Assembly: GCA_020137815.1 (NCBI GenBank) | Contig: CM035354.1 | Location: forward strand, 3,844,001 to 3,908,000 | Source: Hormiphora californensis | Lineage: Eukaryota > Animalia > Ctenophora | Direction: 5' to 3' | Length of the DNA stretch: 64,000 bases | Shown here: positions 15,401-62,231 of the stretch, in pieces | Layout: each line of letters begins with the position of its first letter | Position numbering within the stretch: the first letter of the stretch is position 1 | Translations under genes and position numbers: made by a program | The notes under the pieces: model-generated | The model's input: the letters and a program-made list of their open reading frames with translations, nothing else | What the model was told of the DNA's origin: nothing | Database searches by the model: none

Positions 15401-18400
15401 ATGAAGGGCGATGAACGCATCGTTTGCACCTTTACAATGTGATCGTCTAGAAGCATTTGGATGTCCTCAACAGATGACAGGATGGAGACACCTGAGGGAA
15501 ACCGGGTTAAACTTTGGAGCACTGTTTTTGTAACGATTGGCGCTGTTTCGTAAAATTTTGGTTACAATTGGTGTTTTTAGACTGCTTCAAGAAGTAATTT
15601 TGGGAGCTACCTCACCTGTATCTCGGTAGGGTATAAATACAAACTGAACATCGCTCCATTCTCCCTTCATTTTCTGCATCGCCTTCTCCAGGGCATACTC
15701 CTTACTAGCTACACCCGATATCTCCTCCAGCTGCTCAAGGTTCTTCTCCAACCCATATCCCAGCATCTCAGCCAGGGGAGTTTCCTCAGTTGGGGTGATA
15801 TCATAGCCCACTGCCTCGCACATCTGCTCCCAGTGCCGGGGTCTCAAACCAGGGTTGCAGAGTGTAGCCAAGAGGGGCAGGTGAACCTTGAATTTCTCAA
15901 GACGATTCTTCACCGTAGTTGCGACCCTCATGGGCCCGGGTAGGTCACCAAAAGACCGGACAAGTTTGTACATTACCCTCCAGAGGTTTCCAACCTCCTC
16001 GGCCACTTCCTCCGCGTTCAGGCCCAAAATGGGACCCTTCGTCCAGGAGTCGTATTTGTCCTGGAACCGTACTGCGGTAGTCCACAGCTTGTCAAAGGGT
16101 TCTTTCATTTGTACGGATGCTGCGATTTGTGGGTATTGCGTTGGTTCTGGTATCTCGAGTAGTTCCTGAGGGGAGAGATATTCAGTATTTGAGTAAGTAC
16201 TATCACGGAATGTATTCAAGATGAATTCCAAATGAACTAGTTGCACATCCACAACCACGAACTGGTATTCAAGATTGCGTTACCTCTTCTCGGTTGATGG
16301 TGTCCCTTTCCGTGGCATACGCTGCCAGTCTATCACCTAACTCCTGAAGTTGCTCGCAATACGTGTTAGCCTCTGTCAACCTGTCTTTGGTCTTGAATGC
16401 ATCCGTGTCTTCCACTGCCTTATTCACCCTCTCAAGGAATTCCTTCTTCCATCCAGAGAGGTTATCTGTTGCCTGAAATAGTTGGGAAGTGAAAGAGCGA
16501 AACCGCAGTTAGGGGCGATTCAAAAAGGACGTCCGTGATTTTTGGTCATTTTTTACCCCCCCCCTTCCTCCCCCTGTCCAGGCCTGTCCGAATCTACCAG
16601 ACCCCCTCCCTCCCCCTTGTCCGAGTTTCGTCCACATATATATCTAGTAAAATCAATAAACTTTTTCTTCAAAACCTGGAACAGTCCGAATTGCGTCAAC
16701 CCCCCCCCCCCTATCCAGAGATGTCCGAAATTGGCTACCTCCCCCTCCCCCTCCCCCTGGACGTCCTTGTTGAATCGCCCCTAATTAGTATACCCGAATC
16801 CGATATACCCGTGATCAGGTCGCATGCCACATACCGAAGTGATTGGTCTGCTAATAGGGTTACTATACTAAGTGGGCTTATGTAGCAAATTGGTTTGAAA
16901 TTAGACCCGGTGTTATTGATCCCTGTGTAATACTGGACAACAACTTCTCAAATCACACACGGGACCTTTTTAAACCACAGCCTCGCCTTCTAAAATCATC
17001 AGTTACTTGTATCATATCTTCTTTGACATCCAAGGTGCCTTCGACAACGTGGACCCAGTAATACAGTGCCTCAAACTTCACAACTGTCCTCCTCCTGTCC
17101 TCGAACTTCTGGACTACTATCTACATCATTGGAACAACATCGCCTGACGACTGGACTACAACCAGATTCGACCTGGACGGCGTTCCCCAAGGAGATACTC
17201 TAGCACCGGATGAATGGGACGTCACCACTACAGAAATCCTTCACATCGTTAACACCAAAGAATACCTTCAAGCAGACTGTGACGACTTTCTCGGGCTAAC
17301 ATGTGGCCACGATCTCCTCAACCTGATCCCGCGAGCACAATGGATCCTCGACTGTATCATAGAGTGGTGTACTAAGATGGGCCTATCAGTCAGTCCGGTC
17401 AAAATAAAAGCCATCATCTTTACTCATCGAATCCCCGATCCCTCCTCTCCTCATCAACGGGTCTCCAGTTCCCGTTGTTTGGAAATGTATTGCAGTAATC
17501 AGGTTCGATCCATCATTGGCAGTGCCCGGCCAGACTGATAACCACCGGGGACCTTATGCAGTGATAAGATAACCGGAGCATATACACCAAGAGGACATCG
17601 TCGGTGTGAAAGTTGCAGGCCTAAAATCCTCCGTCAGATCAGCAGCACTAACTTGCAACGAACCAACACTGAATGTCGTCCTCAGTGTGACCAACACAGC
17701 AGATGACGAAACTATCTACAAATGTCCAGCGGAGGCGAACCTGAAAAGGACTGTCAGACGAGTGAGGAAGGGAGCTATGAAAAACCCAGCAACTCCTGAT
17801 ACCCCGACATTTTATATCCCGGAGGAAAGCAGTTCTTTCAGGTCTACATAGAAAATCCCGTTGTTTGGAAATGTATTGCTAAACTCTACTCTAGCATCAA
17901 GTTGAACTGGAGGATAGAGCATGGAGATACTTTTCGTCCGACAACACCTTGCCAAGGAGTATGCCGACGTGATAACTACGTGGAAGTATAATTGGACACA
18001 CGGGTAAAGTTCATCTGATACAGGAGCCGCCAATGGTGAAAGACAAGGATCTGACTCAATACCTACCCAATTTCCCTCTTCATAGGGCCGTCTGAGTTTC
18101 CAGTTTTAGGGCATTGTTTGAAAAATTGGATGGTCCGAAACAAGGGCCAGATGACTATCCTGGGCCTATTGGACAGCTCATCCATAACAAAGCAGAAACA
18201 GATATTTGGGGAGTTCCACCGCGTCCTGACTGGGAGGCACTCCCATTTGATTTCCCGCTGCTCCCATTTGATTTCCCGCTGGTTGGCATGAACAAAGATG
18301 CACAATATATGTACCGTCTTTGTCATTATGCTACAAAAGGTAGGTTTTTCCGTTCAATTCAGAACTGCAGTTTCATTTCTGTGTTTCTAATAATGACTAC

Positions 18401-21400
18401 AATTCAATCAATTAATCCCAATTTTCCTCTTCATAGGGCCATCAGAGTTTCCTGAAAAACTGGGAAAACAGGTTATCGGGGACCTACATGGTGCTAGGTG
18501 GATAAACCTGGGGGCAAGAGTCATCCGTCTGTACATTACACTTCGCCCATCAGACGCCATCTACCCAACAGTGAGACAGTTGACTGATATAATTGTAGGA
18601 ATACATTTCAAGGTAAAAAAGTTCTTTCAGGTCGATGATGCCTACATACTGAAAATCCAGCTGTTTGGAAATGTATTGCATACTCGACATATCACTGGAT
18701 GTGGTACACCACGAATAACTCCAGAGGAGATTGAAGATGCTCAATCTATTTTGGACCTGGATATGAGCTTGGTGACACTATCCCGTGGACCTCAGGAAAA
18801 TCCCGTTGTTTGGAAATGTATTGCTAAACTAAAGAATTTTGAAAGACATTGGATTAATCCTGGCTCGTATCCTCTCGATCTGTGGAACTCTGAGGGGTCA
18901 AACAACGCTCTAGGATCTCTTTTTGGAGCAAAGAAACCTATCATTTGGATCAGGACAATGAAGATCCACCAGGAGAAGACAGAGCTAGTGCTGGCACAAA
19001 GTCTTGTCGGTCGAACAAATGTTTCCAGAAAAAAAGAAGAAATACGTTTCCAGAAAAAAAGAAGAAATACGTTGATGAAATTAGACCCGAGTAAGCTTCT
19101 CCCAGCTTTAAAGCAACTACACACTGTACCAAATGTTGCCAAGGTGTGGGAGGCCTTTTCCTTTTAAGCTCGATATCTCTGTAAAAACTGCCTAAGAACT
19201 TCTAAGTCCCTAGCAACTCCCTTGCAACTCCCTAGCAACACCCTGTCAACTCCCTAGCAACATCCTATCAACTCCCTAACAAAACCCTAACAACTATCTA
19301 TCAACTCCCTATCAGATCCCTGCCAACTCCCTAGCAACTCCCTAGCAACACCTTGTCAACCCCTATCAACTCCCTGTCAACTCCCTGTCAACACCCTAAC
19401 AACACCCTAACATTTACCTGCTCATTCTTCTTCCTCAGCCTCATCTCACTGTAACTGATGATGGGGAGGATCCTATCTGGCCAGGAGAAAGTCGTATCAT
19501 TCAGTTTGATATCCTCTTCAGGGAGGGTCGCGTAGTCCAGCAGGAATATGAGATTCTCCGCAGCTGGCACAGCTTGGTTCTGAGGGTGCATTAATTTAAA
19601 CTGGGTCTACTGAATGTATTCAGTTGAAGATCTAGTGATATATTCTCTCCGTTCCCACTGCCCATTGCCGTCTTAAGGGTACGCTAACCAAAATTTTTTT
19701 TCGAGTGCAGGGAAATCTCTCACCGCAGAGTTGTAGGCCATGCCAAGGAGACCTCAAATATGCAATTTTAGCCCTCAAGTCGAATTCATATTTTTGCTAC
19801 AGCCGTTTTAAAATCGTCTTGAAAATTTCTGAAAAGACGTTTTTGACACCCTAAAAATACATTTTCAGGGCTAGAAGCTTAAAATTATGGGGATTTGAAG
19901 GGGATAGGAAGGTTTATCGACACAAAAATTTTTATTAAAATCGGTGATGATTTTCGGTCGTGAGATTGATTTACTTTTTTCCCTCTTAAAGGCCCTATTT
20001 AGCAAAGTTCCGAAAGTTTGTGAAGGCTGTAAATTGGTGAAAAGTTGCGTCTAACGATTATCTAAGTGGCCACAAATTTTTGGCGTGTCCTTATTTGAGA
20101 CAAGTTCTACAGAGCTTTTTTTGTGAAAGCCGTTTTTTTTAGAAATAAAGAAATAGCCTGTATCTCAAAAACGACTAATTTTAGAGACCTGAGACCAAGC
20201 TTAAACGATTCAGAAGGTCCGATTTTGGGGGGGTCTTCTGAGAGACATTTTTCTCCTACTTCAACGGTTTTCGCTGTAATTGCGAAAAAGGATTTTGCAA
20301 GAAGGTGGAAAAGCAGCACGAAGCAGGCTGTCGGAACTCCTCTTTTGCCCTCTTCAAAGGATTTGTTTTTCGCAATTACAGCGAAAACCGTTGAAGTAGG
20401 AGAAAAATGTCTCTCAGAAGACCCCCCCAAAATCGGACCTTCTGAATCGTTTAAGCTTGGTCTCAGGTCTCTAAAATTAGTCGTTTTTGAGATACAGGCT
20501 GTTTCTTTATTTCTAAAAAAACGGCTTTCACAAAAAAAGCTCTGTAGAACTTGTCTCAAATAAGGACACGCCAAAAATTTGTGGCCACTTAGATAATCGT
20601 TAGACGCAACTTTTCACCAATTTACAGCCTTCACAAACTTTCGGAACTTTGCTAAATAGGGCCTTTAAGAGGGAAAAAAGTAAATCAATCTCACGACCGA
20701 AAATCATCACCGATTTTAATAAAAATTTTTGTGTCGATAAACCTTCCTATCCCCTTCAAATCCCCATAATTTTAAGCTTCTAGCCCTGAAAATGTATTTT
20801 TAGGGTGTCAAAAACGTCTTTTCAGAAATTTTCAAGACGATTTTAAAACGGCTGTAGCAAAAATATGAATTCGACTTGAGGGCTAAAATTGCATATTTGA
20901 GGTCTCCTTGGCATGGCCTACAACCCTGCGGTGAGAGATTTCCCTGCACTCGAAAAAAATTTTTGGTTAGCGTACCCTTAATATCAAATTAGAGACGAAA
21001 AACGTTTTTTGATTACCCAGATATTATTTCTCTCAAATTCCCATACTGTCTCCTATTTCCTACCTTCAAATCCTGAAGCTCCTTCGTTTCCAGCTTATCA
21101 AGGAACTTCATCAGCGTCACCAAATCATCAGTATTATCGGGGATAGTGGTGATCTTTGTCACTATCGCATCGTACTGCTCACAAATGCTCTTGTTGGTGG
21201 CCCGGGATCGGAACACAATATCCCGGAGGATCATGTTGGATAGCATGTTGCTTCGATCACACAGGAACCGGTTCATCTTGTTACAGTTTAGTTCGAACAG
21301 GTGCATGGGAACAATCACTATCCTCTCCATGACCTCGTCTGTGAGCATTTTGTGCTTTTCTATCGCCTGGTGATTGGGGGAGGGGGTCCCGGGTCAGCTC

Positions 21401-33207: not shown

Positions 33208-33419
33208 CACTTGTTTCGACCTCTCTGTGTAGGACGTATGCTTATTTACTATCAATTATCGTTTACGAAAGTATAATGCCAGAAAATACGCCAATTTTAA
33301 CGGCTAAAATAAAAATCAGTAGCGAGGCCGCCCGATAATAAATCGGCAATATTCTGGATATTTCAGTTTGACCACCTTTTAAATATGTTACAGGTCATGT
33401 AAAAAGTAGCGAAACAGAG

Positions 33420-36400
33420 ATGATGTTGTTTATTTTGTTCATCTCGACTTTCCTAGATCCCTCGAGCGGCCTCCTCTTCGAACCTGAACCCAATGAAAAA
33501 CTCTCGGACTTTTCTCTGGAGAATGGTCAGCTATACGTGTCCTCCCCCAAACGGACGATGATCCTGGACAACTCATTTTCCGTCCTCAGCGAGCACCGTA
33601 AAAACTATTCATCTGTAGTGCTGCTCTACACGCACCAAAATGCGGTGTTAGAGTGTGGGGAGAGGATCGTTGATTCACAGGGTCCATGCTGCTACCTATT
33701 CCACCCTGACAACCTGACCACTCCAATTGCACAAAACAGCTCCTCGAGAATGTGCGATACCATCTTCAAATCGCTGTACAACTTTTATGCATCTTACAGG
33801 ATTACTACTGATAATCAGGGGAAGATTGATAAAAGGTTCACAGTTTACCATTCATTTTTCACAAATCATGGCGTGGGTGAGCCCAATGAGATGTTTTACA
33901 CGAATATCTTCAATGAAGCAGCCGACCCCGATACACGACTGCTGTTCACTAACGTCAAGTTTGATGGGCTGAGAATCCTCGGTGCCAGGCCACTCTTCAT
34001 CAGTCCCTCTCAGTATGCGTCTAGCAAGTTTCTGGTGTATTTGAAAAGTAAAAACGAAAAAATCGCCTATGCAATTGATCCAAATTATGCGAAATCAAAA
34101 GAACGGGTTCCGATTCAACTTTTATGCAATGGCCAAGAAAAAAAGTTCCTGAATGGTACAGGAGTTGATCTTACAGATGCAGATAGAACCTCGGATTCGT
34201 TCGGTACAGGATTTACCCATTTCATATTTTGTAAATACAGCAGTGATATCTACATCTGCCCCTACCCAGAAGAGGGAATTACTGCAGCCATCGATTCGGC
34301 CAATAATCAAGGAAGTAGGACTGGATCTCTTGACTCGACCAGCATCTATTCATCAGCTTTACTTGATGAGTACTCGATTATGAAAGGAATGATAGTAAAT
34401 GGAGCCCTGATGCTGTTTTATACCTCTCAGAAGACAATTCACAAGGTAAAGTACTTCATTGTGATAGCTGTAAAGTACAATTGTTTTTTGCCTAATAATA
34501 TTCTCGTAATTTGAATATATAAAATCCATTCCAGCTGTTTGTTCAAGATAAAACAATGAAGATTGACAGCTTCCAATTCACAGCTAAATCTCGCATCACG
34601 AATCTTGAATTTAGTAACGAAAACTTGGGATATGCTCTCACCGAAGACTCTGTAAGTTATGACATCTGTAGCAGGCGGTCTGCTACGTTTCACTGCCACA
34701 CACTTATTATATTACTTCTGTAGAAACAGTGGTCAAGTGACTCCAGTTTAAAAAGTGTGAGATCAAATAGCATGACAATCCAGGTTGAAAGAATTTATCA
34801 TTCTTCAGGAGCTTCAGATTATAATCCTGAACTCCCCTTTTTTGTAGGTCGAGAGTTTCCTGCTCCACAATTGTGCCAGTGTTAGTACCTGTGATGAATG
34901 CCATGGCCTCAACGACCCGCACTGTGGCTGGTGTACTCTGGAAAGCAAGTGAGTGGACAATATGACGGTCACCTCGCCACAATCATCATAGTTTGTTTAA
35001 AATTATGAATCAGTACAATAATATTTTGAGAAATCTAATCATTTTCCTCCAGGTGCTCGGACAAGTCAAATTGTACGATCCATCCTGAGTATTGGTACCA
35101 GGATTCCAATAAGTGTCTCGACATTACCTTACAGCCATCTGATCTTGATGTTATCGCTCATAGTCAGGTGAGTGATAGAAAGAAGGAGAGAGTGAGAAAT
35201 AAGGAGAGATAGTGAGAGATGGAAAGATAGAGAGATAGAGGGATGGAGACAATAATGTATCGAGACAGATAGAGAGTTGTAAGATATTGAGAGTTGAACT
35301 GCAGCCGGTAGACACGATATCAATCTACTCATGCAGCAGCTTCAGAGCACGCAGAGCATTCGGCAATGCGTTCTTATTTCGAAAAGAGAAAGAGAGAAAG
35401 ATATAGAAAAAGAGAGAGAGAGAGATTAGAGAGAGAAAACAATATAGGAAGTTAGTGTGAGTGGACTTGAAGCCTAAAGATGGAGAAAAATAGATAGAGA
35501 ATAGAGATACACGGAGAGATATTGATCAGTTTAGCCTGACAAAAGAGCTCTTTGTCTCTGTCTAGACAATAGCAAGTTTACCCTACTGCTTTCTTCCGTC
35601 TCATTCTTTTCTCTCCCATTTTCCATATATCGCCCGACACTTTTTCTAGTCGCACTCTGAATGATGTGTGTGTGTGGTTGGTGTAATTCGATATAGGGAC
35701 GAGATAGTCGATAAACAAAGTGTGGGAGTGCAAGTAAGATGAGAATCTCAGAGAGAGAAAAAGAGGGCAACCAAGTGAGAGAAGTGAGTTATGGTGGAGA
35801 GATAGAAGGAGAGAAAAATAAAAATGAGATTTCAGGGGAAAGTGAGGGGAGAGAAGGAGAGGGAGAACTTCTTGATCGAAAAAGAGATCAATTTGTCAGG
35901 ATTCAAAGAGTGTTTCAGGAAAGTCAGAGAAAGAGAGTGAGAGTGGGAGAGAGAGATAGAGTGGATGAGAGAGAGAGAGAGAGAGAGAGACAGTGAAGGA
36001 GAGAGAGAGAGAGAGTGGATAAGAGACATGGAGAGAGACAGTGAAGGAGAGAGAGAAAGTGGATGAAAGATAGAAGCACAATTTTAACAGATAACATACA
36101 CCTATCATCACACGTCACACAGCACCTTCTCTCTCTCAATATGCCCCTCTGGTAGAGCTGTACCCAAGTACTGCTGCAGTACTACACACGGCCCGATCAA
36201 ATATCAATCAGCGTTCTTTACTGCAGGTCTATACTATAAGATTCTTACTTTTTCTCCCCTCTATCTCTCTCCTGTGCTCTCTTATTTATTTCAAATCAAA
36301 TATCTCTCCCTCCCTCCCTCCCTCCCTCTATCTCTCTCAATAGCAATCTATCTCTCTCTCAATCTCAAATCTTTGAATATGGTATTACGCCGTAACCAGT

Positions 36401-45200: not shown

Positions 45201-48200
45201 ATTGCCGCCTACAGCTGCCGATTCTGCGGGGACAAGTGTCGATACAAGAACCACGGAGAGTGTGAGGGTGGAAATGTTATCAGTGGAAACTCAACTGTGT
45301 GCCTGGAGAAGAATACTAAAATTGAAAAGGTTAAATCCCCCTCTGTTCAGCTAATGTACTTCGTTAAATCCCCCCTCCTCTGGTTTCTGAACGTGCCTTG
45401 TTCGTGTGAAGAATATAAACAACTCAGAACACAACCATATTCAGCATTTGGTTCAGTGTTTAGTGCGTAACTGGACGCTTTATAGTGATTATACCGCCCT
45501 CACCTTCTGGGCAACATTCCTCAGCACATTCCATGTGACATTCTCACGGAACACGGGCCGACAAATGTATCTATCTCCCCCTATTCTATCTCTCTTCTAT
45601 CTCTCTCCCCCTCTCTGTATATTTCTCTCCCTCTTCTATCTCTCTCGCTCTTCTATCTCTCTCTTCTATCTCTCTCTCTCTCCCTCTTCTTCCTCTCTCC
45701 CTCTATTTTTCTCTCCCTTTCTCTCTTAACTCCTCAGTTAACCCCTCCTCCCCCTCCTCCACGCAATTAACCCTCCTCTTACTCAATTAACCTCCCACAT
45801 CCCAGGTGTTACCCTCGTGGAGTCCCGGTGAGGGCGGGGTAGAAATAACCCTCTTTGGAAAGAGTCTCTCGGTGAATGGGCTGACCGTACAGGTTGAATT
45901 CCTGTTCGAGGATTCCAAATCTAAGTCTGTGGAAACCATTGCCTGTCAAGATACAACTTACACCAACTCAACTAGGTACAGCCCTATTTTCCAACCCCGA
46001 TATAGGGAATCAACAACCTTGTTTACGAAATAACCCCTCGCACACTGGCAAGGAAGGGGTAACTTCGTTACCAATAGTTGACCCCGGCCCGATATACTGG
46101 GCATACCGATTTCTGTAACACTACTCTCTTCTGTAGGGTAACGTGCAAGACGCCCAGTATTATGGAGGCTCATTCCTTCAAAGAGATGCACAGAGAGGTA
46201 ACGGCTAACATGAGCCTGAGGTACATCGGGGGAACAACAGCTCGACATGTGTCTAACTACCAGTTCCACTTTACGGTAGGTCCTGTACTAGATCTCTATC
46301 TATCTATCTACGGAGTGCCTGGGCTTGCCAACGGCAAGCCCACAGGGGACTATCGCAAAGCGATATCGCCGGCACTAGGAGAATAGCCCCCCTCCCCTCC
46401 CCCACCATCAGGAACTGCCCACAGGACAGGTTCGCATTATAGGTGGCTTCGGGTTGGGGAGACTAAACTCCTTCGAGAGTCGCAGAATCTTGATTCTTCT
46501 TCCCTATTAGTCTTGGAACTTTGGCTCAATCTCCCTGCGACAGGTGGTTCTTGAGTTTATTTGCTTTCTCGATTAGCTTGATGGCTACCGTGGTGTGATA
46601 TATTATCGTTTTGCCTAGATCTTTGTACGAAGTTTTGCCGCTGAGTCTCATTCTCTCCGTTTCTAGGATTTCACATTCACAGATTAGGTGTTTCGCATTT
46701 TCTTTTGTTTTAGAGCATAGACTACATATGTCTGTATTCGATTTTCCAATCTTCTTGAGGTAGTAGTTGAACGGCCCTATATTTGTGATGAGATGTAGTA
46801 TGGTTCTATACTTTTTCCTTTGGTTTGCGTACAGTGTCATTTTTTTTGATAGTGAGTTCCATGTTGATTCATTCGTTACTATGGTTCTTGTGTGTTTCCC
46901 TCCATTTATTAGAAATTGGTTCATGGTTTTTGTTTTGGCTATTTTCGCCGTAGAATTTTTAATATAGCTGTGTGGGATTGGTATTTGTCTGGTTTCACTG
47001 ATTGATTTGCTGCATCCTTCTTTGGCGAGTTGGTCAGCTATCTCATTACCTTGGATGCCGATATGTGCTTTGACCCATTTTATTTTCACCGTATTGTTTT
47101 GTGCTAGTTGGTTGAGTTCCGCGTTGCATTCCTTAATTGTTAAGGAGTCGGAGGTCAGTTTACTTAGTGCACTTATGCTGGCGGCTGAATCTGATCTGAT
47201 GTGGATGTGGTGATTTCGTGTCCCATTGTTGTTTAGTTCCTCTGCTGCTCTTTTAATTGCTGTTACTTCGGCTTGGAAGACTGTGCTATAATTTGGTAAT
47301 CTTTCTGAGATATCGATTTCTTGTGTAAGCACTGTGGATTTTGAGTGTGCTCCTAGCCCCGTTTGGTTAGCTTCGTTTTTCGATCCATCCGTGTATACTG
47401 TTAGTGCATTTCTGTCCTCCTCATCTAGTGTACCTGTTTCCCAGTCTATTGTTGTCTCGTAGTTTTTCATAAGGGTTTCTTTGGTTGTTTTGTCTAGTGG
47501 GCGTACTGGTAGCTCTAGTTCTTCCCACAACCTGTTGCATGTATGAGCATGGGTATAGTTGGTTAACATACCTTTTTCTTTAGTCCATTTCCCATTTGCT
47601 TTTAGGCGCCCAGTGGTTTCAGTAGCTGTTTTCTCTACGTGGTGTATTATGTCTGTAGTGTTCGTTATGATGTTTAGGTCAGCCCCTGCAGTGTTAGGGA
47701 AGGCACCGGTTGCTATTCTGAGAGCTAACCTTTGCACCGCTCTCAGTTTCTTGGCATTATGTTGTTTATAAATCGCATTTATCCATATTGGTGCTGCGTA
47801 CGTTATGAGGGGTCTGATGGTTTGTCTGTAGAGCCATATCGCTACTTTGGGGGATAGTCCCCATGTAGGTCCGATGGCGATGTTGGCTCTCATCAGGTTC
47901 CTTTTGGCTTTTTTTGTGATGTTATCAATGTGTTTGTTGAAGTTTAGTCTGTTGTCTATCGTAACTCCAAGGAATTTTGTTGTGGTGCTTAGTTTTATTT
48001 CTGTACCTTCAATGAAGATTGGTTTAAGTGCCCATTTCCTTTTTGTGGTAAACATTATCATAGTAGTTTTTATTGCGCTGAGCGAAAGGCCTTGGTCTTT
48101 ACACCAGTTGTTTATGTGGTTGAGAGTTGTTTGTGTTCTGTGTCTTATTATCTCTATATCGTCTCCTTCGGCCAGTGATATGAGGTCATCTGCAAATGCT

Positions 48201-51200
48201 TGTAGGTATGCTGGTGTGTCTTTGGCTGTGCTTTGTAGTAGGCTATCTAATACAATATTCCATATTAGCGGCGAGAGAATCCCTCCTTGAGCTACGCCTC
48301 TCTTTATTTGGAAGGTAATGTTCTCATTTTTATGTTCAACGTATAGTGACCTTGTTGTTGTCATATCCATTATCCAGTTTATTGTCTTTGTGTTTATCCC
48401 TTTGTTTATGAGGCCCCGTTGGATTGCTTCGAATGATATCTTGTCGAAGGCACCCTCGACATCTAGGAATACACCTAATGCAAACTGTTTCCTTTTCATC
48501 CTTTTTTCAATCTTGTGAACGATTTTGTGTAATGCGGCTTCTGTGGAGTTAGATTTTCTGAACCCGAATTGTTTATCGTTAAGCTGTGAGTCTATCTTGT
48601 TTTTTTCCAGGTTCCAGTATATTAGTCTTTCTTGTATCTTAAGGATGATTGGAGCGAGTGTGATGGTGCGGTACGCCTTTGGGTTGTTGTAATCGTCTTT
48701 TCCTGGTTTCGGTAAGAATATACCCTTGCTAGTCTTCCAGTTATTCGGTGTTTGGCCGATGTCGTACGAACATTGAAATAGTTTCAGTAACGGTTCTGCC
48801 ACGGTGTCTATGGCGTTTTGTAGCATGTTGGCTGTAATTTTGTCTGGGCCTGGGGCTTTGTTTGGTTTCATTGAGTTGATTGCATCTTTGACTTCCGTTA
48901 GTTCAAATTTTAAGGTATCTCTTTCTTCCGCTGTTTGGATTTGGCTTATATTGTCGATTGTTGTCGAACCAAAGTGTCTGTCTCTCATTATTTCAAGGGT
49001 TTCTTTTGCGTTTGTTGTGATTGAGTCGTCAGCCCTATATATACAGTCCAGGTTCCTGCTTGAGTTATCTCTGTTCTTGCATATTTTATTAAGTCTAGAT
49101 ATGGCTGGGGTATTTGCTATATTTTCCGTGAACTTCTCCCATGCTTCTTTCTTGTGTGTTCTTTGTAGTCTGTTAAGAATGTTGTTCGCATTTTGTAATT
49201 CTTGTTGTGTCTGTAGTGTTTTGTTTTTTCTGTGTTTTTTCAGTTTTTTCTTCGTTTTATTTATTTGCGCCCTTATTTCTTTGTTGTACCAGGGTGGTGG
49301 TTTGATCTTGTTTGTACTATATGTGTATTCTGTTGTTAGGTCCCATGCCTTTTTGATTTTCTCGTTTATGACTTCAGATGCTCTGTCCATTTCAGACTTA
49401 TTGGTTGGTGGATTGTTTATTATTGTTTCCAGATCTTTGTCCTCGGCTAGGATTTGCTTGAATTTCGGCCAGTCCGTGTTTTTGTCTGTTTTTGTTTTCT
49501 GGAACTTGTTTGTCATGACTTTTAGTTTAGCCCTTAAGTACTTGTGATCTGAGTTTGTAAATTCTTGACTGACCGTCCAGTTGCAGATTAGCTCTCTTCC
49601 TTGTTCGTTGGTTATCGTGAGGTCAATAATTGATTTTTGAAGTCTTGAATTTTCGAAGGTGGCCTTGTTGCCTGTGTTCATGAGAGATAGGTTATTGTTT
49701 GCTAGCGAGATTTGTATCTCATCCCCTCTTTTGTCAGTTTTCTTATCTCCCCAAATGGTGCTGTGTGCGTTGGTGTCGCTGTTGATTATTAATGATGCAT
49801 GTTGTTTTTTGGCATATTTTGCCAGTTTGTGTATGATGTTTATATATTGTAGGGTGTCTTCGTCACCATCCATGTAAATTGCTGCAAGTATAATTTTTTG
49901 TTGTCTCCTGTTTATCTGTATGGCTATGCTGTCTCTGGTTGTAAATTCGTGCAAGGTGATGGCCTTGGAGGAGTGGTTCTTGTGTAACGCTATAGCTACC
50001 CTTGGGTTGTGTTCTGTTGTTTCTGGTTTTATTATTGCTATATCTTTGTGGATATTGGGTATTTTTTTGTTCTTGTCGCAGTAAGGTTCGCATATAAAGA
50101 TGATGGGGGCGTGGTTGTTGATTATGTTTGCTGAAAGTGTTGTTAGTGCAGCTTTCTTGTGCTGTTGGTTCGTGTATATCATGGAGATTGGTACTAGATG
50201 GTCATCGGTTTTTTCTTTTGCTTCTTCCTCGGTTCTTGCGTGGTTTATTTGCGTTGTGAAGATTGGAGAGGTAGCGTTTGTTCTATTTATTCTTTTGTTT
50301 AGTTTCATTTCAGCCGTCGACGTTGCAATCGGCTGGGATCTAGTGTTATTGGTTGAGATGTCTTTTGTTGATTTGAAGTAGTTTGTGATTAAGTTATTTT
50401 TAGTCGTTTGTTTTGGTAAGTGTGGTTTTGTCATTTGGTTGGTGTTGCTTGTTGCGGTCATGGTTTTGCCCTTTTTGGCCTTGTTGCTGGTTCGTTTCGA
50501 GTCTGGTGTTTGCCTTTTTTTCGTGGTTGGAACTGTTGGGCTATTTGTCATTACTTTTCTGCATTTGGCCCTACATGTAAAGTTGTCGTTGCGTGTTCTT
50601 TTTCTCTTAATGGGGCTAGAGGAGATAAGATGGGAGTTGTTCGAGGAAACTTTGCCGGAAGGCTTGTTCGTGGCTCTTATGCCTGTTCGTTGCGCTGTGT
50701 CATGGTCGTTGATCTTGGGTATCGTTGCTTGGTTGTCGATAAGGTTATCGTGTAATTGGGTCAAATTAGGAATCGGTGATGATTGCTTAGTCGTGGCACT
50801 TGGGCCAATACGAGGCTCGAGGGCCTTTACGTTGCTCTTTGGCATTATAGGTGATCGAGGCTCTTGGGCCTTTACGAGGCACGTAGGCCTATTAGTTGCG
50901 CTTGGGCAATTGTACTTACCGATCCTTGGTGGTTGTTGTCTACATTGCTAGTCTGCAGGGTGAGAGGTTAATTAGTGTCAGAATGGTGAATAGAAGGAGT
51001 TTCGCATCATGTAACCACGCGCTTGGAACTGATGTCTGGTGGGCTAGCGGACGTTTCTCAGAGCAAGATGACATACGCTGCAGCTACCTCTTCGTATTGA
51101 GGCGCGCGGCGAGGGGATTGCAGCGCATTCGAAAACAAAAGGGAAAATGTACAAACAGAATTTATTTGTTTTTTTATTTTATGCTCGCCCTGGGGTGCAG

Positions 51201-54200
51201 TGAAGCTTCGCGCGCCGCTAGTCAGTTTGCTCGCGCGGTTGTGTTTTAGCGCGTGACAGGGACGGCAGTCTTGCTTTCCGGAGATATTTCCCGTGGTAAA
51301 AGTCTGATTTTTGAAGATGTCACCCCCTGGGTGACGCGCGATGTTTTATTTGCGCGTCGTAAACATTTATGCTAGTTTTTTGGCTCTCCCACCTTAGTTT
51401 CTTGACCACGCGTGGGAGGGGAGGAGACAACTTCAAAAAAATCCGACTTTAGGCTATTAAGAGTCGTTTGTTAGGTTTGGAGTTAGAAAATTTAAAGTTT
51501 AAAATTTAAATGGATATTAAAAAGAATAGTTCATCGATTACAGTTCAACACAATGGCCAAAGGATTGTCTGTTGGTCAAGGGGGTGTTAGTCATCCATGG
51601 GATGGCTGATGTCCAACACGGATACCCCCTTGACCAACATTCCACTAGCATCTTTGAGTTGGAACGGTTTGAGTCCAGGGTCCTTGGTCTTGGGGCTTGA
51701 GGTTCCAGTCTGTCCCTGTGGTGAGGATGTGTTGTTAGGGGATGGTTTGGGAGAAAACCAGATTTTCTCAGACGTGTGAAATGTTATTTGGGTAAAGTGA
51801 CTGGTTCTCAGCCAATCGGTAAGTAATATTTCCTGGTTCGGTCGGTTGCTAATTACATAAGTCTAGTTATAGTACCTGCTTCTTGTCCTTGTTCTTGTTC
51901 CTCTTATCCTTTTCTTGTCTGAGTTGGTTCTGTGCTTCTTGTAGTGCTGCTTGTTGTTGCTGGAGTTGCTCCGCCTGTTGCTGCATCAATAGTTGCTGCT
52001 GTGTGATGAATTCTTGCTGCTCCATCTGTTGTCGGGCCAGAGTTTGTATCTCCTGTTGTTGTGCTAACAGAGCCTGTAGGTGGAGTTGTTAGCCTTGCTG
52101 TAGGAGGGGTTAGTTGGGTGGGGTGTGGAGATGGGGGTGGAGGTTATGGGGGGGGGGGGGATGATGGTGTGTATTGTTGAGTTGTACCTGGTTTGTGTTG
52201 GCGTTCTGGTCTAGCATCTGTTGGTTAGCTTGGTCATTCTGGTCCATACGTTCATCCGCTGGTTCATTGTTACCGGGTACTATTCCATTACCTGGTACTA
52301 CTCCGTGTCCGGGTACAGCTCCATGTCCAGGTACAGCTCCGTTTCCTGGTGTCATTCCGTTGACTCCAGCAACATTTCGGTTTCGGTTCTGTATGGGGGG
52401 AGGGGTTGTTAGTAGGGATTGTTATACTTCATCTTCATAATTTGATAGTTAGAGGGGGGAGTGGTAATTTGTTTACCAGTCTTATATAAGTTAGGGGGTG
52501 GGGGTTGGTAGTGGATTTGTACTGAATTCGGTAGTTTTGAAGGAAGGGATTATGGGAGGAGGGGAGGTGTATTTCACTTGCCTGTCTTATGTAGGGAGGT
52601 GGGGGCCTAGCTGTTCCCTCTCGTCTTCTTACATTGACTATTCTGAAACCAGGAACTGGTACGATCAAATCTTGCGCTATATCTCCCATTACATAGAGTA
52701 GATGATGGCCCTTTACACTGAGTTGGACTGGAGGTCTGGTCAGAATTGCAGGTTCTAACCACCCGAGAATCCTGGACATTGTCTCCCTCGATTGTAAATG
52801 ATTAAATGTATCAACGACCCGTAGCGAGTGGGTATGGAGGTCATCCTCTTCACATACGTATTGAGCAGGTACACCTGGAATGTTATCTGCAGTCAACATC
52901 AGCGATCTGCCTCGGTAGTCCCGGTTCGTTAACAAGGGAATGTTTTGTTGCAGGAGGAAAGTCTCCAGATCCTTAAAATCCGCGTCTTCAAGCGCCAGCA
53001 TCTCGGTACTATAAATCCTAAGTTGGCGGCCTCTCGGGGCACGCATTATCTTCTGTTGTGGGGTCAGTCTCCTTGCCATGGTTGCTACATGAGAGAATAT
53101 TGGTTATTTGCTGCTGTCGATAGGGGTGTGAGGGTGGTGGGTTGGGTGTAGAGGGGGTGAGAAGGGAGGGGCGGCGTAATTACAAGTGGTATTTGGATAA
53201 TAAGGGACGAGGGGAAGGGGATACTGATATTACACTACTACAGTTGTGTTGGAATGGGGGCAGTAGAGAGCAATATTATTAACAATGTCAGATTTTGAGG
53301 GAGGGAGGCTAAGGGTGATGCGTTGCAATTATACTATCAAGAGCTTAGGATATTGACAATTGAGACTTGAGATGATGGGGAGAGAGGTAAGACTGGTGTC
53401 ATCTAATTAGCGGCAGTCGAGAATTGAGATATTATTATACTACAGCATTTAGGAGTTGTGAGGCTACAATATTGCTAACAACATTAGTGAAATGCGATAG
53501 TTGTAGAGGAATACTGTTGCTGCAGTGACTATAGTGGTATGCTATAGAGGAACAACTGTACTACTGTCAACAGGCAATGAAAGAGGAGGTCAGGGAAGAG
53601 CGGCGTAACTGCAGGCTACGTTTGAGAAATGAGGTGATGAGAGAGAGAAAGAGATTGCGCGCGCGCTGTTTGTTGGTTAGTGGAGTTGTGTATCTGTTGT
53701 AGTCGGCGCAGCTGTCGGTACTCGCGCGTTACGTCTTTGGTTTGGGTCTGTATAGAGTGCGGGGTAAAGGTCGGTTGGAAGAAGGAGAAGGGGGGGTTGT
53801 TGTAAGTGTGTAGATCGTGGTGTCGACGGCGAGCCGTTATCGTCGGTAATACCGAAGGTCGGATAGGTCCGAAGGTTGGGGGGTGAAGAAGATTGGTTGG
53901 CTCTCAGTCAAGACTGAGAGCCTTAAGCCACTGCGCCGCGGCAAGGCTCTTCTTCGTGCAGTGGTCCTGTACTAGATAATCAATAGTTGTGATTGAAAAA
54001 TTCGTTTCCAGTTTCCATTAAAAATAGTTTCGTACAACGAGCTTGGAGTCAGTTCAGTCGCGGCTGCACTTCTTGTGTATTCCATTACCACCATGGACGA
54101 TTTAGTATTCCCCAATGTAACACCGCCCTCCCCCTTCCAGCCACTAGATATCGATGAAGTGTTCCCTGATCAAGGGCCCGTTTCTGGGGGCACCAGGATC

Positions 54201-57200
54201 AAGGTGAATGGAACACGGCTCTGTGTCCACGAACAAACCGGAGTTACAATCAACGGGAAAACGTGCACCAACGTCACGTGAGTAAACCAGATCAGGAGAA
54301 TTTAAATTGAGAGAGTGAAACTGTTAGCTGCAGCTTTTTACTCCTACCCAGTATCCATGGTAACCCCCATGGTAACCCCCATGGTATCCCCCATGGCTAA
54401 CCCCATGGTAACCTCATGGTAACCAAAAGCTATGTTAACACCCCCATTGTTCAGGTGTAACACCGCTACTCAGGAGCTGCACTGCACAACCCCAGCTAAC
54501 CCGATGGGAACACCCCGACAACCAATTGCAGTCTCCCTGGGAGGGGCTACAGTGGAGAAGGATGTCTTCCAGTACGGAGCAGATCCAGTTGTTACTAAGG
54601 TCACACCCAACTGTACTCTTGCACAAGGTAAGTAGTTCAAAACAACCCTTTACTACTACTTCGAAACTGATACCATCGCGCTTTAAAACTATATTTTATC
54701 TCCTCCCCAAGTAAAGTGGAACGAATTTAACACATCCCCCCTCTCTCACTAAAGAAACATCCCTCCCCTCTCCCAGGTGGAACCAATATCACGGTAACGG
54801 GCAAGGATTTCTACCGTATCCAGAATCCCAGACTGGTCCTAACAGATGAAACATGCTCTGATCCTGGGATTGTGATGGTTCCTGCAATGGTTAAATCAAA
54901 TGAACGGTTGATATTCACCATCCCCCAAGACACGACCCGCACCAAACTAGGATTCAAAATGGACAATGTGAGTTTGGCAGCAAGTCAGAGGGGGAGGGGG
55001 TGCAGGAATCGTCTGTGAATACCATGTATTTTACTGTTTATTGATATTCATTTCTCCATTCCAATGCCTTGTTTTAGGTTGAGTCAGTGTGTGAGACAAA
55101 CAAACTATGGGCCTTAGAAGTTCTCCCACGACCGACTGTGATCACCTCTGCCTTTATGGACGGCACCAACAAGTCCATGAGATGCTTTATTGGGGAGAAT
55201 TGCACCATCTCTGTTCAGATGACACAAATACACAGGTAAAGTGATCCAGTTACCATGGTTACCGTCAGTTTGATGCCGTTACCATGGTTACCGTGTTAAC
55301 CGTGGATTTTGGGTGTTTCAGGGAATTGGACTTGCTCCAAAAAATGTGAAACCCAAGTTGTGTGAACAGAATCTGTCAGCACAAGTTTTTCACTTTCACA
55401 ACGTCCTGTGTAACCCTACCCTTTCTCTCCACAGGCTGCCAGATCAAGTGACGGTTCTGATAGGTAGCTCAGCTCTCTGTGCCAACATGTCCATTACACA
55501 GATGCAGACTGACCCTGCGGAGGGGATCTTGTACGCTTTCGGACAACTCAAGTGTTCCTCTCCATCTCTTGATAAAGTGAAAGGTATATTGATCGTTGTC
55601 TAGCCCCCCCCTCCCCCTCCCCCCGATCACCGGAACCCCGACTTACCGGGCGAATAAATTTGGCCCCAATTTGGGCAAATCGGGGTTCAACTGTATGCAT
55701 GTTATCATCCAATCATTCATCCTCAATATTCCAGGTAGTGTATATCAGCTAGGAGGCCGGACTAAGAGGGCCCTGTTGGGGGACCAGGAGACGGACAAGT
55801 TCTCTGTGGTGGTCCAGATAGGACACTATGAGGAGGAGCTGGGTACCATCGTGTTCGTAGAACGGGGCTTCAAGTGGATCTACGCGTACATTGCTGCAGG
55901 TATTGTAATTGTTCAGCAGTATTTTCCAATCTCTTCTTCGTATAGTATCCTTCATTCCCCCATCCCTCCCCCTAGAGGTTCTTAACTCCAACGGTCCAAC
56001 ACCAACACATTACAACACATTTCTACCTATTCGACACCCCCTCCCTTCTACAGGTGCTATTGGTATGGTGTTGATGGTGTTTATGCTGGTGATCGTAGTG
56101 AAAACAAGGAACGAGCAACACAAGAGGAGCCTTCTTCAGCAGAACCATGAGAAAGAACTAACAGCCATTGAAGTGCGATGGCAGGGAGAGGCAAAGAAAC
56201 GTAATTAGACTCAGTCATAAAAGCGAAACTCGCCATGAAACTTTCTTCTTTAATATCCAGTATATCCCCTATTTTCACCACGAATTAACTCTCCCTTTGA
56301 ATGAATTACTAGTGATTAGAATTCCTCACTTACTTTTTACTTTCCCTTGTTAAGTACCTAATCCACCCCTAACTCCCCATCCCTAACTCCCCACCCCCTC
56401 CCCACACAGAGTTTGTTATGAACATGATAGACCGAGATGAGGGATTAGAAAGTTTCAAAGTGGATCCTCGAGATATCCCATTCAGAGTGTTTAGAGACTA
56501 CCTAATCCACTGTATCTTCCCAAGTGTTGATACACGGAAAATACTCAATAACTTACAGGTAAGTTGACTAATTTTATGCTCTCATTTCTTCCCTGTTCTG
56601 AGCACAAAATTGAGTTTATTTTTCTTTTATTTTTCCTTTATTTATAGTAAGGGAATTAAGGGCCGTGAATGGGAAAAAATTCGCAACAAGCTAATTCCTT
56701 CACCAATGTGTCCCTAAGGGTCTCCACTAAGCCCCCAGAAAAGTGTAACACGCTGCCGGGTGTGCAACATGGTCATTTCCGGGTAGGCGTGGTACCTGTA
56801 TTTTCAGCCTGTAGCCAAAAACATAAATCCTCTTAGAATAGGAGTAGAGACAAAATCAAGGACACTAAAATGTTCAGCGTCCTCGCATTAGTGGGGGTAG
56901 GTGCTGGAATTAAGTCTCTATCTCATCTGGTTAATTAGATAATTGGATAATTAGGTTTGCGCATAACCGTTTTTTGGCTGTATGGCTATAGCCACTTAGG
57001 AATGGTTTAGAGATTTTTCATACATGCCATTTTGTTCAGAAAAAAATTTTAAACTAAGAATTGTGTAAAAATTTAGGGCCTATCTCGTACCGTTTTGGCG
57101 TTATTTGCGGTCAAAGTAGGCCAATTAACTCATTATTGGGCATTTTCGGCTGATTTGGCCTACTTTGACAGCTAATAACGCCAAAACGGTAAGAGATAGG

Positions 57201-58306
57201 CCCTTAATTTTTGCACAACTCTTAGTTTAAAATTTTTTTCTGAACAAAATGGCATGTATGAAAAGTCTCTAAACCATTCCTAAGTGGCTATAGCCATACA
57301 GCCAAAAAACGGTTATGCGCAAACCTAATTATCCAATTATCTAATTAACCAGATGAGATAGAGACTTAATTCCAGCACCTACCCCCACTAATGCGAGGAC
57401 GCTGAACATTTTAGTGTCCTTGATTTCGTCTCTACTCCTTTTCTAAAGGTATTTACGTTTTTAGTCTTAGCCTCAAAACACAGGTACCACGCCTACCCGG
57501 AAATGACCATGTTGCACCCCCGGCAGAGTGGTACACTTTTCTGGGGGCTTAGTGGAGACCCTTAGAGACACATTGGTGAAGGAATTAGCTTGTTGCGAAT
57601 TTTTTCCCAATCAGGGCCGAAATCTGCCTATAATTCCCTTACTATTACCCCAGTAAATGGCGATAGTTCAAGATGTTAATCCCTTTCTATTTCCTCAGCT
57701 CGAGCACACAGAATATCCAGATGAGCAACTGGGCCGGTTCAAACAGTTTTTGAACGATGAGCATTTCGTTCAGACATTCATCTCTGTGATAGAAGCTCAA
57801 CGTGATTTCCTGGTACGTTGAACAATATCCTAGTTACAACTTTAGTTACCTTGTCAGACACTGACTGTACAGTGTACACCGCACAACCTCGGCCCGGTGC
57901 GAAGTGGACGGTCTTATATGATACAATAGTTACCATGGTTACTATAATTCTAGTTACCTTGGTAACCATGACAATTCCGTAGGTGCCCCAGCGGTGTGAC
58001 GTGGCTAGTTACCTAACGATAGCACTCTACAGTGATTTCAATTACCTCTCCAGAATCCTCTTCCTCCTACTCGACAAGTAAGGGATCTTTTTTGATATTT
58101 TGATATTTTCCTTCTGGGAACGGTCGGTAATTTTCTATGAGTGAATTTATGTGAATCATTCTTGAATTGTATATGAATCAAACATTTAATCCCTCATTAT
58201 TTCCCAGAGTGATTGATACGGATATCCAGAAGAATGCCAAGCTACTGCTGAGACAAACTAAATCTGTTGCGGAGAAACTCCTTACTAACTGGCTCTCTCT
58301 CGCACT
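33420..58306 (+). CDS. Plexin (signal peptide, divergent Sema, 3 PSI, IPT/TIG repeats, TM, start of RasGAP domain); about 23 exons, 3' end beyond the window
   Basis: PSI motifs CDECHGLNDPHCGWC (34847-34949), CGACS..CTWCP (42665-42767), CVTCL..CRFC (45138-45329); IPT P..GP.SGGT.I.V.G..L; TM WIYAYIAA|GAIGMVLMVFMLVIVV; cytoplasmic PFRVFRDY..CIFP, F..TFI.VIE.Q.DF, VASYLTIAL, KLLLRQTKSVAEKLLTNWLS. Confidence 0.9.
46526..50845 (-). CDS. LINE ORF2: AP endonuclease, reverse transcriptase, RNase H, CCHC finger (1439 aa, uninterrupted)
   Basis: CEPY, SDTNAHS, IIDLT, SDHKY; KAPGPD, YRTITL, QFGFR, FLDVEGAFD, GVAQGGILSP, AFADD, KFLGV; YTDGS, STVFQAE, SDS, WVKAH.GI.GNE.AD; CSLC..E..KHLICEC. Confidence 0.97.
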   Translation of the reverse strand: MPKSNVKALEPRIGPSATTKQSSPIPNLTQLHDNLIDNQATIPKINDHDTAQRTGIRATNKPSGKVSSNNSHLISSSPIKRKRTRNDNFTCRAKCRKVMTNSPTVPTTKKRQTPDSKRTSNKAKKGKTMTATSNTNQMTKPHLPKQTTKNNLITNYFKSTKDISTNNTRSQPIATSTAEMKLNKRINRTNATSPIFTTQINHARTEEEAKEKTDDHLVPISMIYTNQQHKKAALTTLSANIINNHAPIIFICEPYCDKNKKIPNIHKDIAIIKPETTEHNPRVAIALHKNHSSKAITLHEFTTRDSIAIQINRRQQKIILAAIYMDGDEDTLQYINIIHKLAKYAKKQHASLIINSDTNAHSTIWGDKKTDKRGDEIQISLANNNLSLMNTGNKATFENSRLQKSIIDLTITNEQGRELICNWTVSQEFTNSDHKYLRAKLKVMTNKFQKTKTDKNTDWPKFKQILAEDKDLETIINNPPTNKSEMDRASEVINEKIKKAWDLTTEYTYSTNKIKPPPWYNKEIRAQINKTKKKLKKHRKNKTLQTQQELQNANNILNRLQRTHKKEAWEKFTENIANTPAISRLNKICKNRDNSSRNLDCIYRADDSITTNAKETLEIMRDRHFGSTTIDNISQIQTAEERDTLKFELTEVKDAINSMKPNKAPGPDKITANMLQNAIDTVAEPLLKLFQCSYDIGQTPNNWKTSKGIFLPKPGKDDYNNPKAYRTITLAPIILKIQERLIYWNLEKNKIDSQLNDKQFGFRKSNSTEAALHKIVHKIEKRMKRKQFALGVFLDVEGAFDKISFEAIQRGLINKGINTKTINWIMDMTTTRSLYVEHKNENITFQIKRGVAQGGILSPLIWNIVLDSLLQSTAKDTPAYLQAFADDLISLAEGDDIEIIRHRTQTTLNHINNWCKDQGLSLSAIKTTMIMFTTKRKWALKPIFIEGTEIKLSTTTKFLGVTIDNRLNFNKHIDNITKKAKRNLMRANIAIGPTWGLSPKVAIWLYRQTIRPLITYAAPIWINAIYKQHNAKKLRAVQRLALRIATGAFPNTAGADLNIITNTTDIIHHVEKTATETTGRLKANGKWTKEKGMLTNYTHAHTCNRLWEELELPVRPLDKTTKETLMKNYETTIDWETGTLDEEDRNALTVYTDGSKNEANQTGLGAHSKSTVLTQEIDISERLPNYSTVFQAEVTAIKRAAEELNNNGTRNHHIHIRSDSAASISALSKLTSDSLTIKECNAELNQLAQNNTVKIKWVKAHIGIQGNEIADQLAKEGCSKSISETRQIPIPHSYIKNSTAKIAKTKTMNQFLINGGKHTRTIVTNESTWNSLSKKMTLYANQRKKYRTILHLITNIGPFNYYLKKIGKSNTDICSLCSKTKENAKHLICECEILETERMRLSGKTSYKDLGKTIIYHTTVAIKLIEKANKLKNHLSQGD
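51587..53079 (-). CDS. Putative spliced LINE ORF1 (341 aa): exons 53079-52582, 52388-52188, 52073-51876, 51715-51587
   Basis: Three phase-0 introns with CTAAC branch points and C-rich tracts ending in CAG; donors CAG|GCAAGT (or in-frame GT at 52476), CAG|GTACAA, CAG|GTACTA; exon lengths 498, 201, 198 and 129 nt join into one open frame. Confidence 0.7.
53885..53964 (-). ncRNA. HDV-like self-cleaving ribozyme fold at the 5' end of the LINE
   Basis: P1 CCACUGC/GCAGUGG; P2 GAAGAAGA/UCUUCUUC; P3 GCC/GGC; L3 UUGCCGC; single G-C P1.1 pair; P4 GGCUCUCAGUC/GACUGAGAGCC; J4/2 C-C-A-A. Confidence 0.8.
56645..57644. mobile_element. 1.0-kb palindromic non-autonomous element, Academ-like
   Basis: TAGTAAGGGAATTA..TAATTCCCTTACTA termini; ~480-bp arms; 3-bp TSD TTA. 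Confidence 0.8.
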
Positions 58307-61227: not shown

Positions 61228-62231
61228 TAGTAGGGACGAATCTCTTATAAAAAGAAGTGGCTGACTCACTATTTGGTGGAAAGCAAATTCCGGTTGTAAC
61301 CCACCTATTTTGACCCGCTGAACACGATCCCGTTCATAGGTAAGGTCGCAAAAGTGAAGAACATGCCCAAATCGGCCACGCCCTTTTACCTGTATTTTCA
61401 GCCTGTAGCCAAAAACATAAATCTTCTTAGAATAGGAGTAGAGACAAATCTGAGGGCACTAAAGTGATCAGCGCCCTCGCATTAGTGGGGGTAGGTGCTG
61501 GAATTAAGTCTCTATCTCATCTGGTTAATTAGATAATTGGATAATTAGGTTTGCGCATAACCGTTTTTTGGCTATATGGCTATAGCCACTTAGGAATGGT
61601 TTAGAGACTTTTCACTGGCGCCATTTTGTAGGCAATAGCCAAGTTATGGGGGGTCGACGTCGGACTTTTAAGCTCTATCTCCAACCGTTTAGCCGTTATT
61701 GGGCTAAATCGATGCTCAAAATGAGCGAAAAACGGTAAAAAGCCCGTTTTTGAGCATCGTTTAAGCCAAATAACGGCTAAACGGTTGAAGATAGAGCTTA
61801 AAAGTCCGACGTCGACCCCCCATAACTTGGCTATTGCCTACAAAATGGCGCCGGTGAAAAGTCTCTAAACCATTCCTTAGTGGCTATAGCCATATAGCCA
61901 AAAAACGGTTATGCGCAAACCTAATTATCCAATTATCTAATTAACTAGATGAGATAGAGACTTAATTCCAGCACCTACCCCCACTAATGCGAGGGCGCTG
62001 ATCACTTTAGTGCCCTCAGATTTGTCTCTACTCCTATTCTAAGAGGATTTATGTTTTTGGCTACAGGCTGAAAATACAGGTAAAAGGGCGTGGCCGGTTT
62101 GGGCATGTTCTTCACTTTTGCGACCTTACCTATGAACGGGATCGTGTTCAGCGGGTCAAAATAGGTGGGTTACAACCGGAATTTGCTTTCCACCAAATAG
62201 TGAGTCAAAAAATTAAGATTCGTCCCTACTA
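61228..62231. mobile_element. 1.0-kb palindromic non-autonomous element, Academ-like, related to 56645-57644
   Basis: TAGTAGGGACGAATCT..AGATTCGTCCCTACTA termini; 3-bp TSD TAT; shares an ~230-bp arm block with the first element. Confidence 0.8.

Follow-up and report, generated by a model that had tools for sequence, protein, structure and literature searches.

Each round of copying should strip a LINE of its sense introns, an expectation on which the standard retrotransposition reporter rests; introns are carried by some green-algal retroelement models. Retroelements with spliced transcripts or retained introns are described in the following papers: in the Arabidopsis Ty1/Copia element EVD a spliced RNA (shGAG) gives the structural protein and the unspliced full-length RNA serves replication, with splicing coupled to premature termination (PMC5580714); Penelope-like elements keep introns after retrotransposition, a property called highly unusual among retroelements (PMC8557442); splicing of human L1 RNA damages the promoter or ORF1p and results in dead-end copies, the SpIREs (PMC5860796); the introns of TART are antisense and restore no open reading frame, and transcript introns are cited for L1, Tad, kangaroo-1, Penelope and Athena (PMC1636488). 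A search of open-access papers yielded no LINE whose ORF1 needs sense introns to be removed, and the accessible parts of PMC5718144, PMC9977147, PMC2911113 and bioRxiv 10.64898/2026.05.21.726589 contain nothing on LINE introns.

Here we describe a LINE of the ctenophore Hormiphora californensis whose ORF1 appears to be interrupted by three sense-oriented introns. It lies in a stretch of 64,000 nucleotides (contig CM035354.1, positions 3,844,001 to 3,908,000), which as a whole is termed the window. By analogy, the element would resemble the Copia shGAG system in setting a spliced message for the structural protein against an unspliced template, along with an early termination that is here proposed. 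Copia, however, is an LTR element whose single alternative splice lies near the protease; the LINE has no LTRs, and its ORF1 holds three phase-0 introns, the removal of which is needed for the full protein. With Penelope-like elements it shares sense introns kept after retrotransposition; those elements have a GIY-YIG endonuclease, pseudo-LTRs and, in two studied elements, a 5′ UTR intron, whereas the LINE has an APE-RT-RNase H protein, a target-site duplication (TSD) with a tail, and coding introns. Like the RNA of human L1, its RNA can be spliced in the sense direction, and unlike in L1 this splicing builds the full ORF1. TART and Tad are likewise non-LTR elements with spliced transcripts, the introns being antisense in TART and sense here; finally, ORF1 plus APE-RT-RNase H is the organization of I-group LINEs, from which the element differs by its ORF1 introns. 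The initial annotation had proposed a retrovirus-like split of roles between spliced and unspliced RNA: splicing of introns 1 and 2 and the retention of introns are both seen, whereas the closest analogy is plant Copia GAG rather than retroviral env, and the split itself is something that we infer.

Table 1. Features of the element, its ORF1 introns and its insertion site (positions in the window)
Feature	Position	Strand	Remarks
Host intron of IPT/TIG-domain (plexin-like) gene	46276..54140	plus	empty-site reading; phase-0 flanking exons
LINE element	46293-53962	minus	between two TSD copies; tail and intact ORF2
5′ leader	53080..53962	minus	883 nt; four upstream ATGs; acceptor-like AGs at 53114 and 53085
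ORF1 exon 1	52582..53079	minus	498 nt
Intron 1	52389..52581	minus	193 nt, GC-AG, phase 0; skipped in X9 contig, spanned by X5 contig 7
ORF1 exon 2	52188..52388	minus	201 nt; present in spliced X9 contig
Intron 2	52074..52187	minus	114 nt, GT-AG, phase 0; skipped in X9 contig
ORF1 exon 3	51876..52073	minus	198 nt
Intron 3	51716..51875	minus	160 nt, GT-AG, phase 0; predicted; spanned by X5 contig 6
ORF1 exon 4	51587..51715	minus	129 nt; 42 aa plus stop
MITE-like insert with terminal inverted repeats	51297..51452 (bounds approximate)		inter-ORF spacer
Branch point and 3′ splice site (candidate)	50953..50980	minus	acceptor rank 4/499, score 11.4
ORF2	46526..50845	minus	1439 aa from first ATG at 50845
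3′ UTR	46311..46525	minus	DNA run X5 depth 1.6-2.1e5 in two end bins
(TAGA)n tail	46293..46310	minus	3′ end of element

The element is inserted antisense in the intron of a host gene with a TIG domain (PF01833, E 1e-6), right after the donor of that intron. It had been annotated as a TSD-bounded, tailed copy with an intact ORF2, and all of these are found: a perfect 14-bp duplication (46279-46292 at the 3′ end of the element and 53963-53976 at its 5′ end), the (TAGA)n tail, and an ORF2 frame that is open from 50947 (1473 codons). ORF2 has the order APE endonuclease, RT, RNase H and C-terminal zinc-binding motif, with Pfam matches above the cut-off to PF14529 (E 9e-18), PF00078 (E 1e-31) and PF00075 (E 4e-16), and one below it to zf-RVT (PF13966); its start, MPKSNVK, recurs in the related protein P0001. 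Long terminal repeats are absent from the element ends among the 20 largest direct repeat families and the 25 longest inverted pairs, and Pfam finds no GIY-YIG endonuclease, the APE being present instead. The element thus combines the APE and RT of ORF2 with a TSD, a simple-repeat tail, a 5′-truncation pattern and no long terminal repeats, as in APE-type LINEs, and an RNase H after the RT with an ORF1, as in the I group (superclass I) defined in PMC8969392: it is a young APE-RT-RNase H, I-group-like LINE. Named proteins among the 120 ORF2 matches listed are three from Mnemiopsis leidyi (P0048, P0067 and P0077), 35-37% identical over the searched ORF2 stretch; in a tree whose named references come from Mnemiopsis only, these proteins and the RT of the element share a clade (FastTree support 0.95). 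A search of viral and prokaryotic contigs gave no relatives.

Splice sites were scored with matrices trained on 31 introns, picked by eye, of the dynein gene of the host in the window; for the first 20 of these, as far as a 1-nt break in the gene, the exons were checked to join into an open frame. Under this host-trained model the acceptors of introns 1, 2 and 3 rank 2, 5 and 1 among the 499 AGs of the element, their donors rank 4, 12 and 9 among its 542 GT/GC dinucleotides, and all six scores fall within the leave-one-out range of the host. Each intron sits between a CAG and the next exon, has an in-frame stop and is poor in G (4-12%, against 22-26% in the exons). The host-like branch points claimed for these introns are borne out by a branch motif 16-21 nt from each 3′ end; the dynein introns have YTRAY in 18 of 31 cases and CTAAC in 4 of 31. 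With GT/GC-AG ends, a branch point and host-like scores, the three are assigned to the U2 spliceosomal introns. An alternative acceptor of intron 2 at 52098 (rank 3/499) would, if used, add a stop. Host-like sites permit 124 open-frame models, and among the 53 with three introns the one that had been proposed at the outset, with the coordinates of Table 1, phase 0 throughout, a stop in each intron and a 341-aa frame, is reproduced as the top-scoring (62.0 vs 58.9 for the runner-up). Joining its exons (498+201+198+129 nt) gives 341 aa plus a stop, whereas read-through into intron 1 stops the unspliced ORF1 at 214 aa.

Alignment covered four of the 13 listed sequencing runs (X5, X8, X9 and X13), of which X13 contributed no aligned contig. 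X9 is a seawater run labelled RNA-Seq, a label that is the guess of the tool; its contig record 12 (728 nt, depth 12.6) aligns in three pieces, 51916-52072, 52187-52388 and 52582-52945, omitting 114 nt (GT-AG) and 193 nt (GC-AG), which are exactly introns 2 and 1, with 157-202 letters on the short side of the junctions. RNA across the ORF1 junctions had been put forward as a check of the intron model, and both introns are indeed absent at the predicted sites, this support coming from one contig of one run. The contig ends at 51916, 40 nt short of intron 3; among the aligned X9 contigs there is no intron-containing ORF1, only the spliced form having been assembled. X8 covers only a part of ORF2 (49217-50003). 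Contigs of both runs carry a loose end that was tried as a spliced leader and rejected, as it is the NuGEN amplification adapter; a matching sequence is reported from NuGEN-amplified cDNA in PMC4322613, and the adapter therefore fits RNA-derived (cDNA) libraries.

Retention in DNA can be seen in run X5, which stems from a different sample and study from the four best holders, X1-X4, and of which 1222 contigs were aligned. None of these is listed with a joint at any of the three introns: contig 6 (51657-52139, depth 737) runs through intron 3 and across the intron 2 acceptor, and contig 7 (52343-52715, depth 220) spans the whole of intron 1. As assembled contigs drop rare variants, some intronless DNA copies may still exist. 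Intron retention in genomic copies, another check that the initial annotation had named, is accordingly observed both in the TSD-bounded copy and in the X5 contigs, few copies having been examined. We consider it highly probable that introns 1 and 2 are real, spliced and retained in the LINE ORF1, and intron 3, with only slightly less confidence, is very probably so too.

The depth of X5 climbs toward the 3′ end of the element (Spearman -0.70 over 27 bins; medians from 5′ to 3′ of 654, 804 and 6176), and seven different loose flanks occur at that end. Given that 5′ truncation is the expected LINE pattern (PMC8969392), the gradient and the flanks indicate a 5′-truncated LINE family, depth being only a rough measure. 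The ORF1 region is as deep as the 5′ part of ORF2. A contig of a host exon has a depth of 590 and other contigs 220-290, which points to about 3-4 full-length haploid copies in the X5 sample, depth being no true copy number. With so few full-length copies, some of the X5 differences may be alleles of the window locus; three versions of the leader at 53776-53790 (544 and 284 out of a depth of 1081, the third making up the remainder) imply at least two loci if the sample is one diploid. Sequence differences were assessed for the 40 listed of 101 in the whole stretch. The 16 listed in the ORF1 region, relative to X5 and X9, comprise three in intron interiors and 13 in exons and hit no splice site; seven of the 13 exonic ones are synonymous, vs an expected fraction of 0.22-0.27 (P 0.013-0.035), and in exons 2-4 two of five are, too few to decide.

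Two segments of the element have much higher depths in X5. The MITE-like insert of the inter-ORF spacer (20-nt arms, 85% complementary) reaches 17,000-120,000 and is hence far commoner there than the LINE. The 3′ UTR (46293-46525) exceeds the 3′ part of ORF2 in depth about 30-fold, which suggests a SINE, or many very short 5′-truncated copies, with the same end. An imperfect direct repeat of 20 nt and hairpin-like GC stretches occur in this UTR, which has no Rfam match, two at E ~0.9 having been dismissed as chance.

Most of what can be said of the ORF1 protein concerns exon 1. Its AlphaFold2 model, from a five-sequence alignment, has a pLDDT of 81 and two small α/β domains, predicted to be tandem ferredoxin-like domains of the RRM/ACT type. 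The top PDB rows in Foldseek are tandem-RRM proteins and ACT domains (E 0.01-0.05, the best being UP1 at E 0.012), and the best VIA Z is 7.2 (rmsd 2.4, 61 aligned), RRM and ACT not being separated; the modelled fold fits an RRM-type ORF1p, short of proof. Exon 1 matches no Pfam family. It has four real homologues (33-80% identity), of which two are Pleurobrachia bachei entries (56% and 33%); P0125 and P0126 were rejected as repeat-rich chance matches, and the length of P0123, equal to that of the spliced ORF1, is due only to a duplicated exon 1. None of 335 candidates has an exon-1 match within a longer protein. P0128, 35-39% identical to exon 1, ends in Q-V-S-R just past the last strand, and read-through of a host phase-0 donor yields the same kind of ending, so that this C-terminus may hint at an old intron. 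Exon 2 encodes a Gly/Asn/Pro-rich linker with short repeats; exon 3 has Gln at 24 of 66 positions and a Lys/Arg-rich end, a composition that makes a coiled coil likely. As the unspliced frame stops at 214 aa, splicing would attach this likely Gln-rich coiled coil and a basic tail. CCHC knuckles in ORF1 are typical of the LOA or R1 clade; the pattern C-x2-C-x4-H-x4-C is absent from every ORF1 exon.

The full ORF1p needs the removal of three introns, yet these introns are passed on; message and template must hence be kept apart. From target-primed insertion we infer that the RNA reverse transcribed into this intron-bearing copy, with its TSD and tail, was unspliced. The element would accordingly make two RNAs, a spliced message and an unspliced template. 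The message would be translated into the complete 341-aa ORF1p, made up of the RRM-like pair, the linker, the Gln-rich coiled coil and the basic tail, and would likely terminate near 51166, where a poly(A)-like signal lies; lacking the 3′ end required by ORF2p, it would not be copied. The unspliced full-length RNA would keep the 3′ UTR and be reverse transcribed, and the introns would thereby be transmitted. The proposed signal is a pair of AATAAA sites at 51178 and 51166 (51125..51178, minus strand), the only two of 16 in the element that are followed by a U-rich run (44-56% T; 25% T or less downstream of the remaining sites), which makes the pair a candidate for an internal poly(A) site at which an mRNA with ORF1 alone would end. 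We consider this mechanism, with its ORF1-only message, the probable one.

The same data could be accommodated by one full-length dicistronic RNA that is slowly or partially spliced, its unspliced fraction being copied, perhaps in the nucleus, while spliced copies fail to spread. The RNA and DNA contigs, the TSD-bounded copy and the splice-site ranks fit this equally well; AATAAA is common in the A-rich strand (16 sites); spliced retrocopies of human L1 are dead ends (PMC5860796), and nuclear copying has been proposed for Penelope. However, X9 assembled only the spliced form and the 1222 X5 DNA contigs include no intronless one, and no AATAAA other than the internal pair is followed by a U-rich run. 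We regard a single RNA as unlikely. It is still less probable, to a marked degree, that the spliced RNA arose by exonisation, through transcription of a host gene running across some copy, while the element itself made do with the unspliced ORF1 of 214 aa. In favour of this, the X9 contig lacks a 5′ end that would point to its promoter, and all detected homology, like the predicted fold, is confined to exon 1. Against this, three top-ranked acceptors restore a single frame in phase 0, the exons are purine-rich and the introns G-poor, and in the window the element and its host gene lie on opposite strands; the differences in exons 2-4 are too few to weigh here.

Least probable of all, and in our view very nearly negligible, is that a fragment of a host gene, captured or adjacent and unique to this copy, makes up the ORF1 region, or that the copy acquired its introns in place once inserted. 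Few full-length copies exist, and exon 1 has no Pfam family, does not align to the ORF1 of related families and has no homologue that could be linked to an ORF2 of its own contig; all of this is compatible with capture. The region nevertheless lies inside the perfect TSD pair, the three X5 leader versions need at least two loci in one diploid, and the predicted pair of RRM-like domains fits an ORF1p. The initial annotation had itself named a captured fragment unique to this copy as what would overturn it, and here the equal X5 depths of ORF1 and the 5′ part of ORF2, together with the diverged homologues of exon 1, speak otherwise. For a copy with a divergence of about 1%, moreover, it is unlikely that three introns were gained in place.

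How ORF2 is translated is a more speculative part of the two-RNA mechanism. The acceptor at 50953 lies ~108 nt before the ORF2 ATG and about 200 nt past the AATAAA pair, and is a candidate for cis- or trans-splicing; ORF2 might be translated from an RNA cis-spliced, or trans-spliced with a spliced leader (SL), at this site, in an operon-like manner. In Hormiphora a leader is trans-spliced onto at least 56% of Iso-Seq reads (PMC8527503). With leader trans-splicing so frequent there, the free acceptors before ORF1 and ORF2 may be leader sites; these candidates score 5.5-11.4, and no leader sequence is seen at them. One adapter-ended X9 contig stops at 53086, exactly at the AG 5 nt before the ORF1 ATG, and the adapter and the leader share their final letters; this is no more than a weak hint of a leader site. 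The window has no match to a Hormiphora-type leader locus. X5 depth shows no step at 50953, which X5 contig 5 crosses, and ORF2-only retrocopies starting there are thus not evident. A 33-nt mini-exon (50952-50920) spliced into ORF2 was discarded by eye, its ATG meeting a stop at once. A complete operon, in which the ORF1 mRNA is cis-spliced, internally polyadenylated and SL-capped, the ORF2 RNA is trans-spliced, only the precursor is copied, and the optional introns of relatives may be ancestral, is a tentative reading that we rather doubt.

Among 80 retrieved loci of related families, the comparison took in four that have an ORF1 and lie in or beside this RT clade: L004, L006 and L007, within the clade of support 0.95, and L008, just outside. 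Their ORF1s are open, and profile alignment to exon 1 fails (probability 0.6%); their fold is of low confidence (pLDDT 55) with no PDB match at E<=0.001, and a DUF4780 match in L007 is sub-threshold (E 0.0014). Each ORF1 (L004:828-2219, L006:490-1983, L007:857-2224 and L008:344-1681) has in-frame, stop-free, phase-1 intron-like segments. Automatic donor-acceptor pairing finds six segments in these ORF1s, five of them of length 3n and phase 1, vs one of seven in the ORF2s (Fisher P 0.03), a statistic for a class picked post hoc, in which codon usage can bias phase and the pairing mis-paired intron 2 of the window; host introns are mostly phase 1 (11 of 20). An acceptor-like AG lies <=11 nt from the presumed ORF1 ATG in every one of the four (ranks 24/405, 33/467, 14/427 and 4/464; 20/499 in the window). 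Both the segments and the AGs are leads from sequence comparison. In L004, L006 and L007, moreover, >100 open codons precede the presumed ATG in its frame. Locus L009:566-6436 has a single 1957-codon ORF and no separate ORF1.

An element of this kind opens to test the choice of template RNA by a LINE, nuclear RNP formation, the ORF1:ORF2 ratio and an intron-based escape from silencing. Vertebrate work on HUSH indicates that introns may help retroelements to avoid the silencing of intronless RNA. Six-frame scans would call such active elements broken, and gene finders would mistake their ORF1 for a host gene, as may have happened with the two entries in the Pleurobrachia proteome.

Elsewhere in the window, the dynein gene, which encodes an axonemal heavy chain (16472-2592, minus strand), has at least 31 introns, protein matches of 45-56% to animal dyneins, no ctenophore being among the names returned, and its 1-nt frame break near 8730, which is either an assembly error or a real lesion. 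Its long introns hold, at 6400-7300 (plus strand) and 16500-19000, an ORF with an F5/8-type domain (a sub-threshold Pfam match) and opposite-strand ORFs, possibly nested intronic genes. Perfect inverted repeats with 100% complementary arms of 1006 nt and 467 nt occur at 84-2467, which includes 31-nt tandem units, and at 19673-20981; these are fold-back elements or assembly artefacts. Two related palindromes of ~950 bp with 460-nt arms (56661-57618 and 61262-62207; 94-98%) are probably one fold-back transposon family. A 380-codon open frame at 33372-34514 (plus strand) belongs to no Pfam family.
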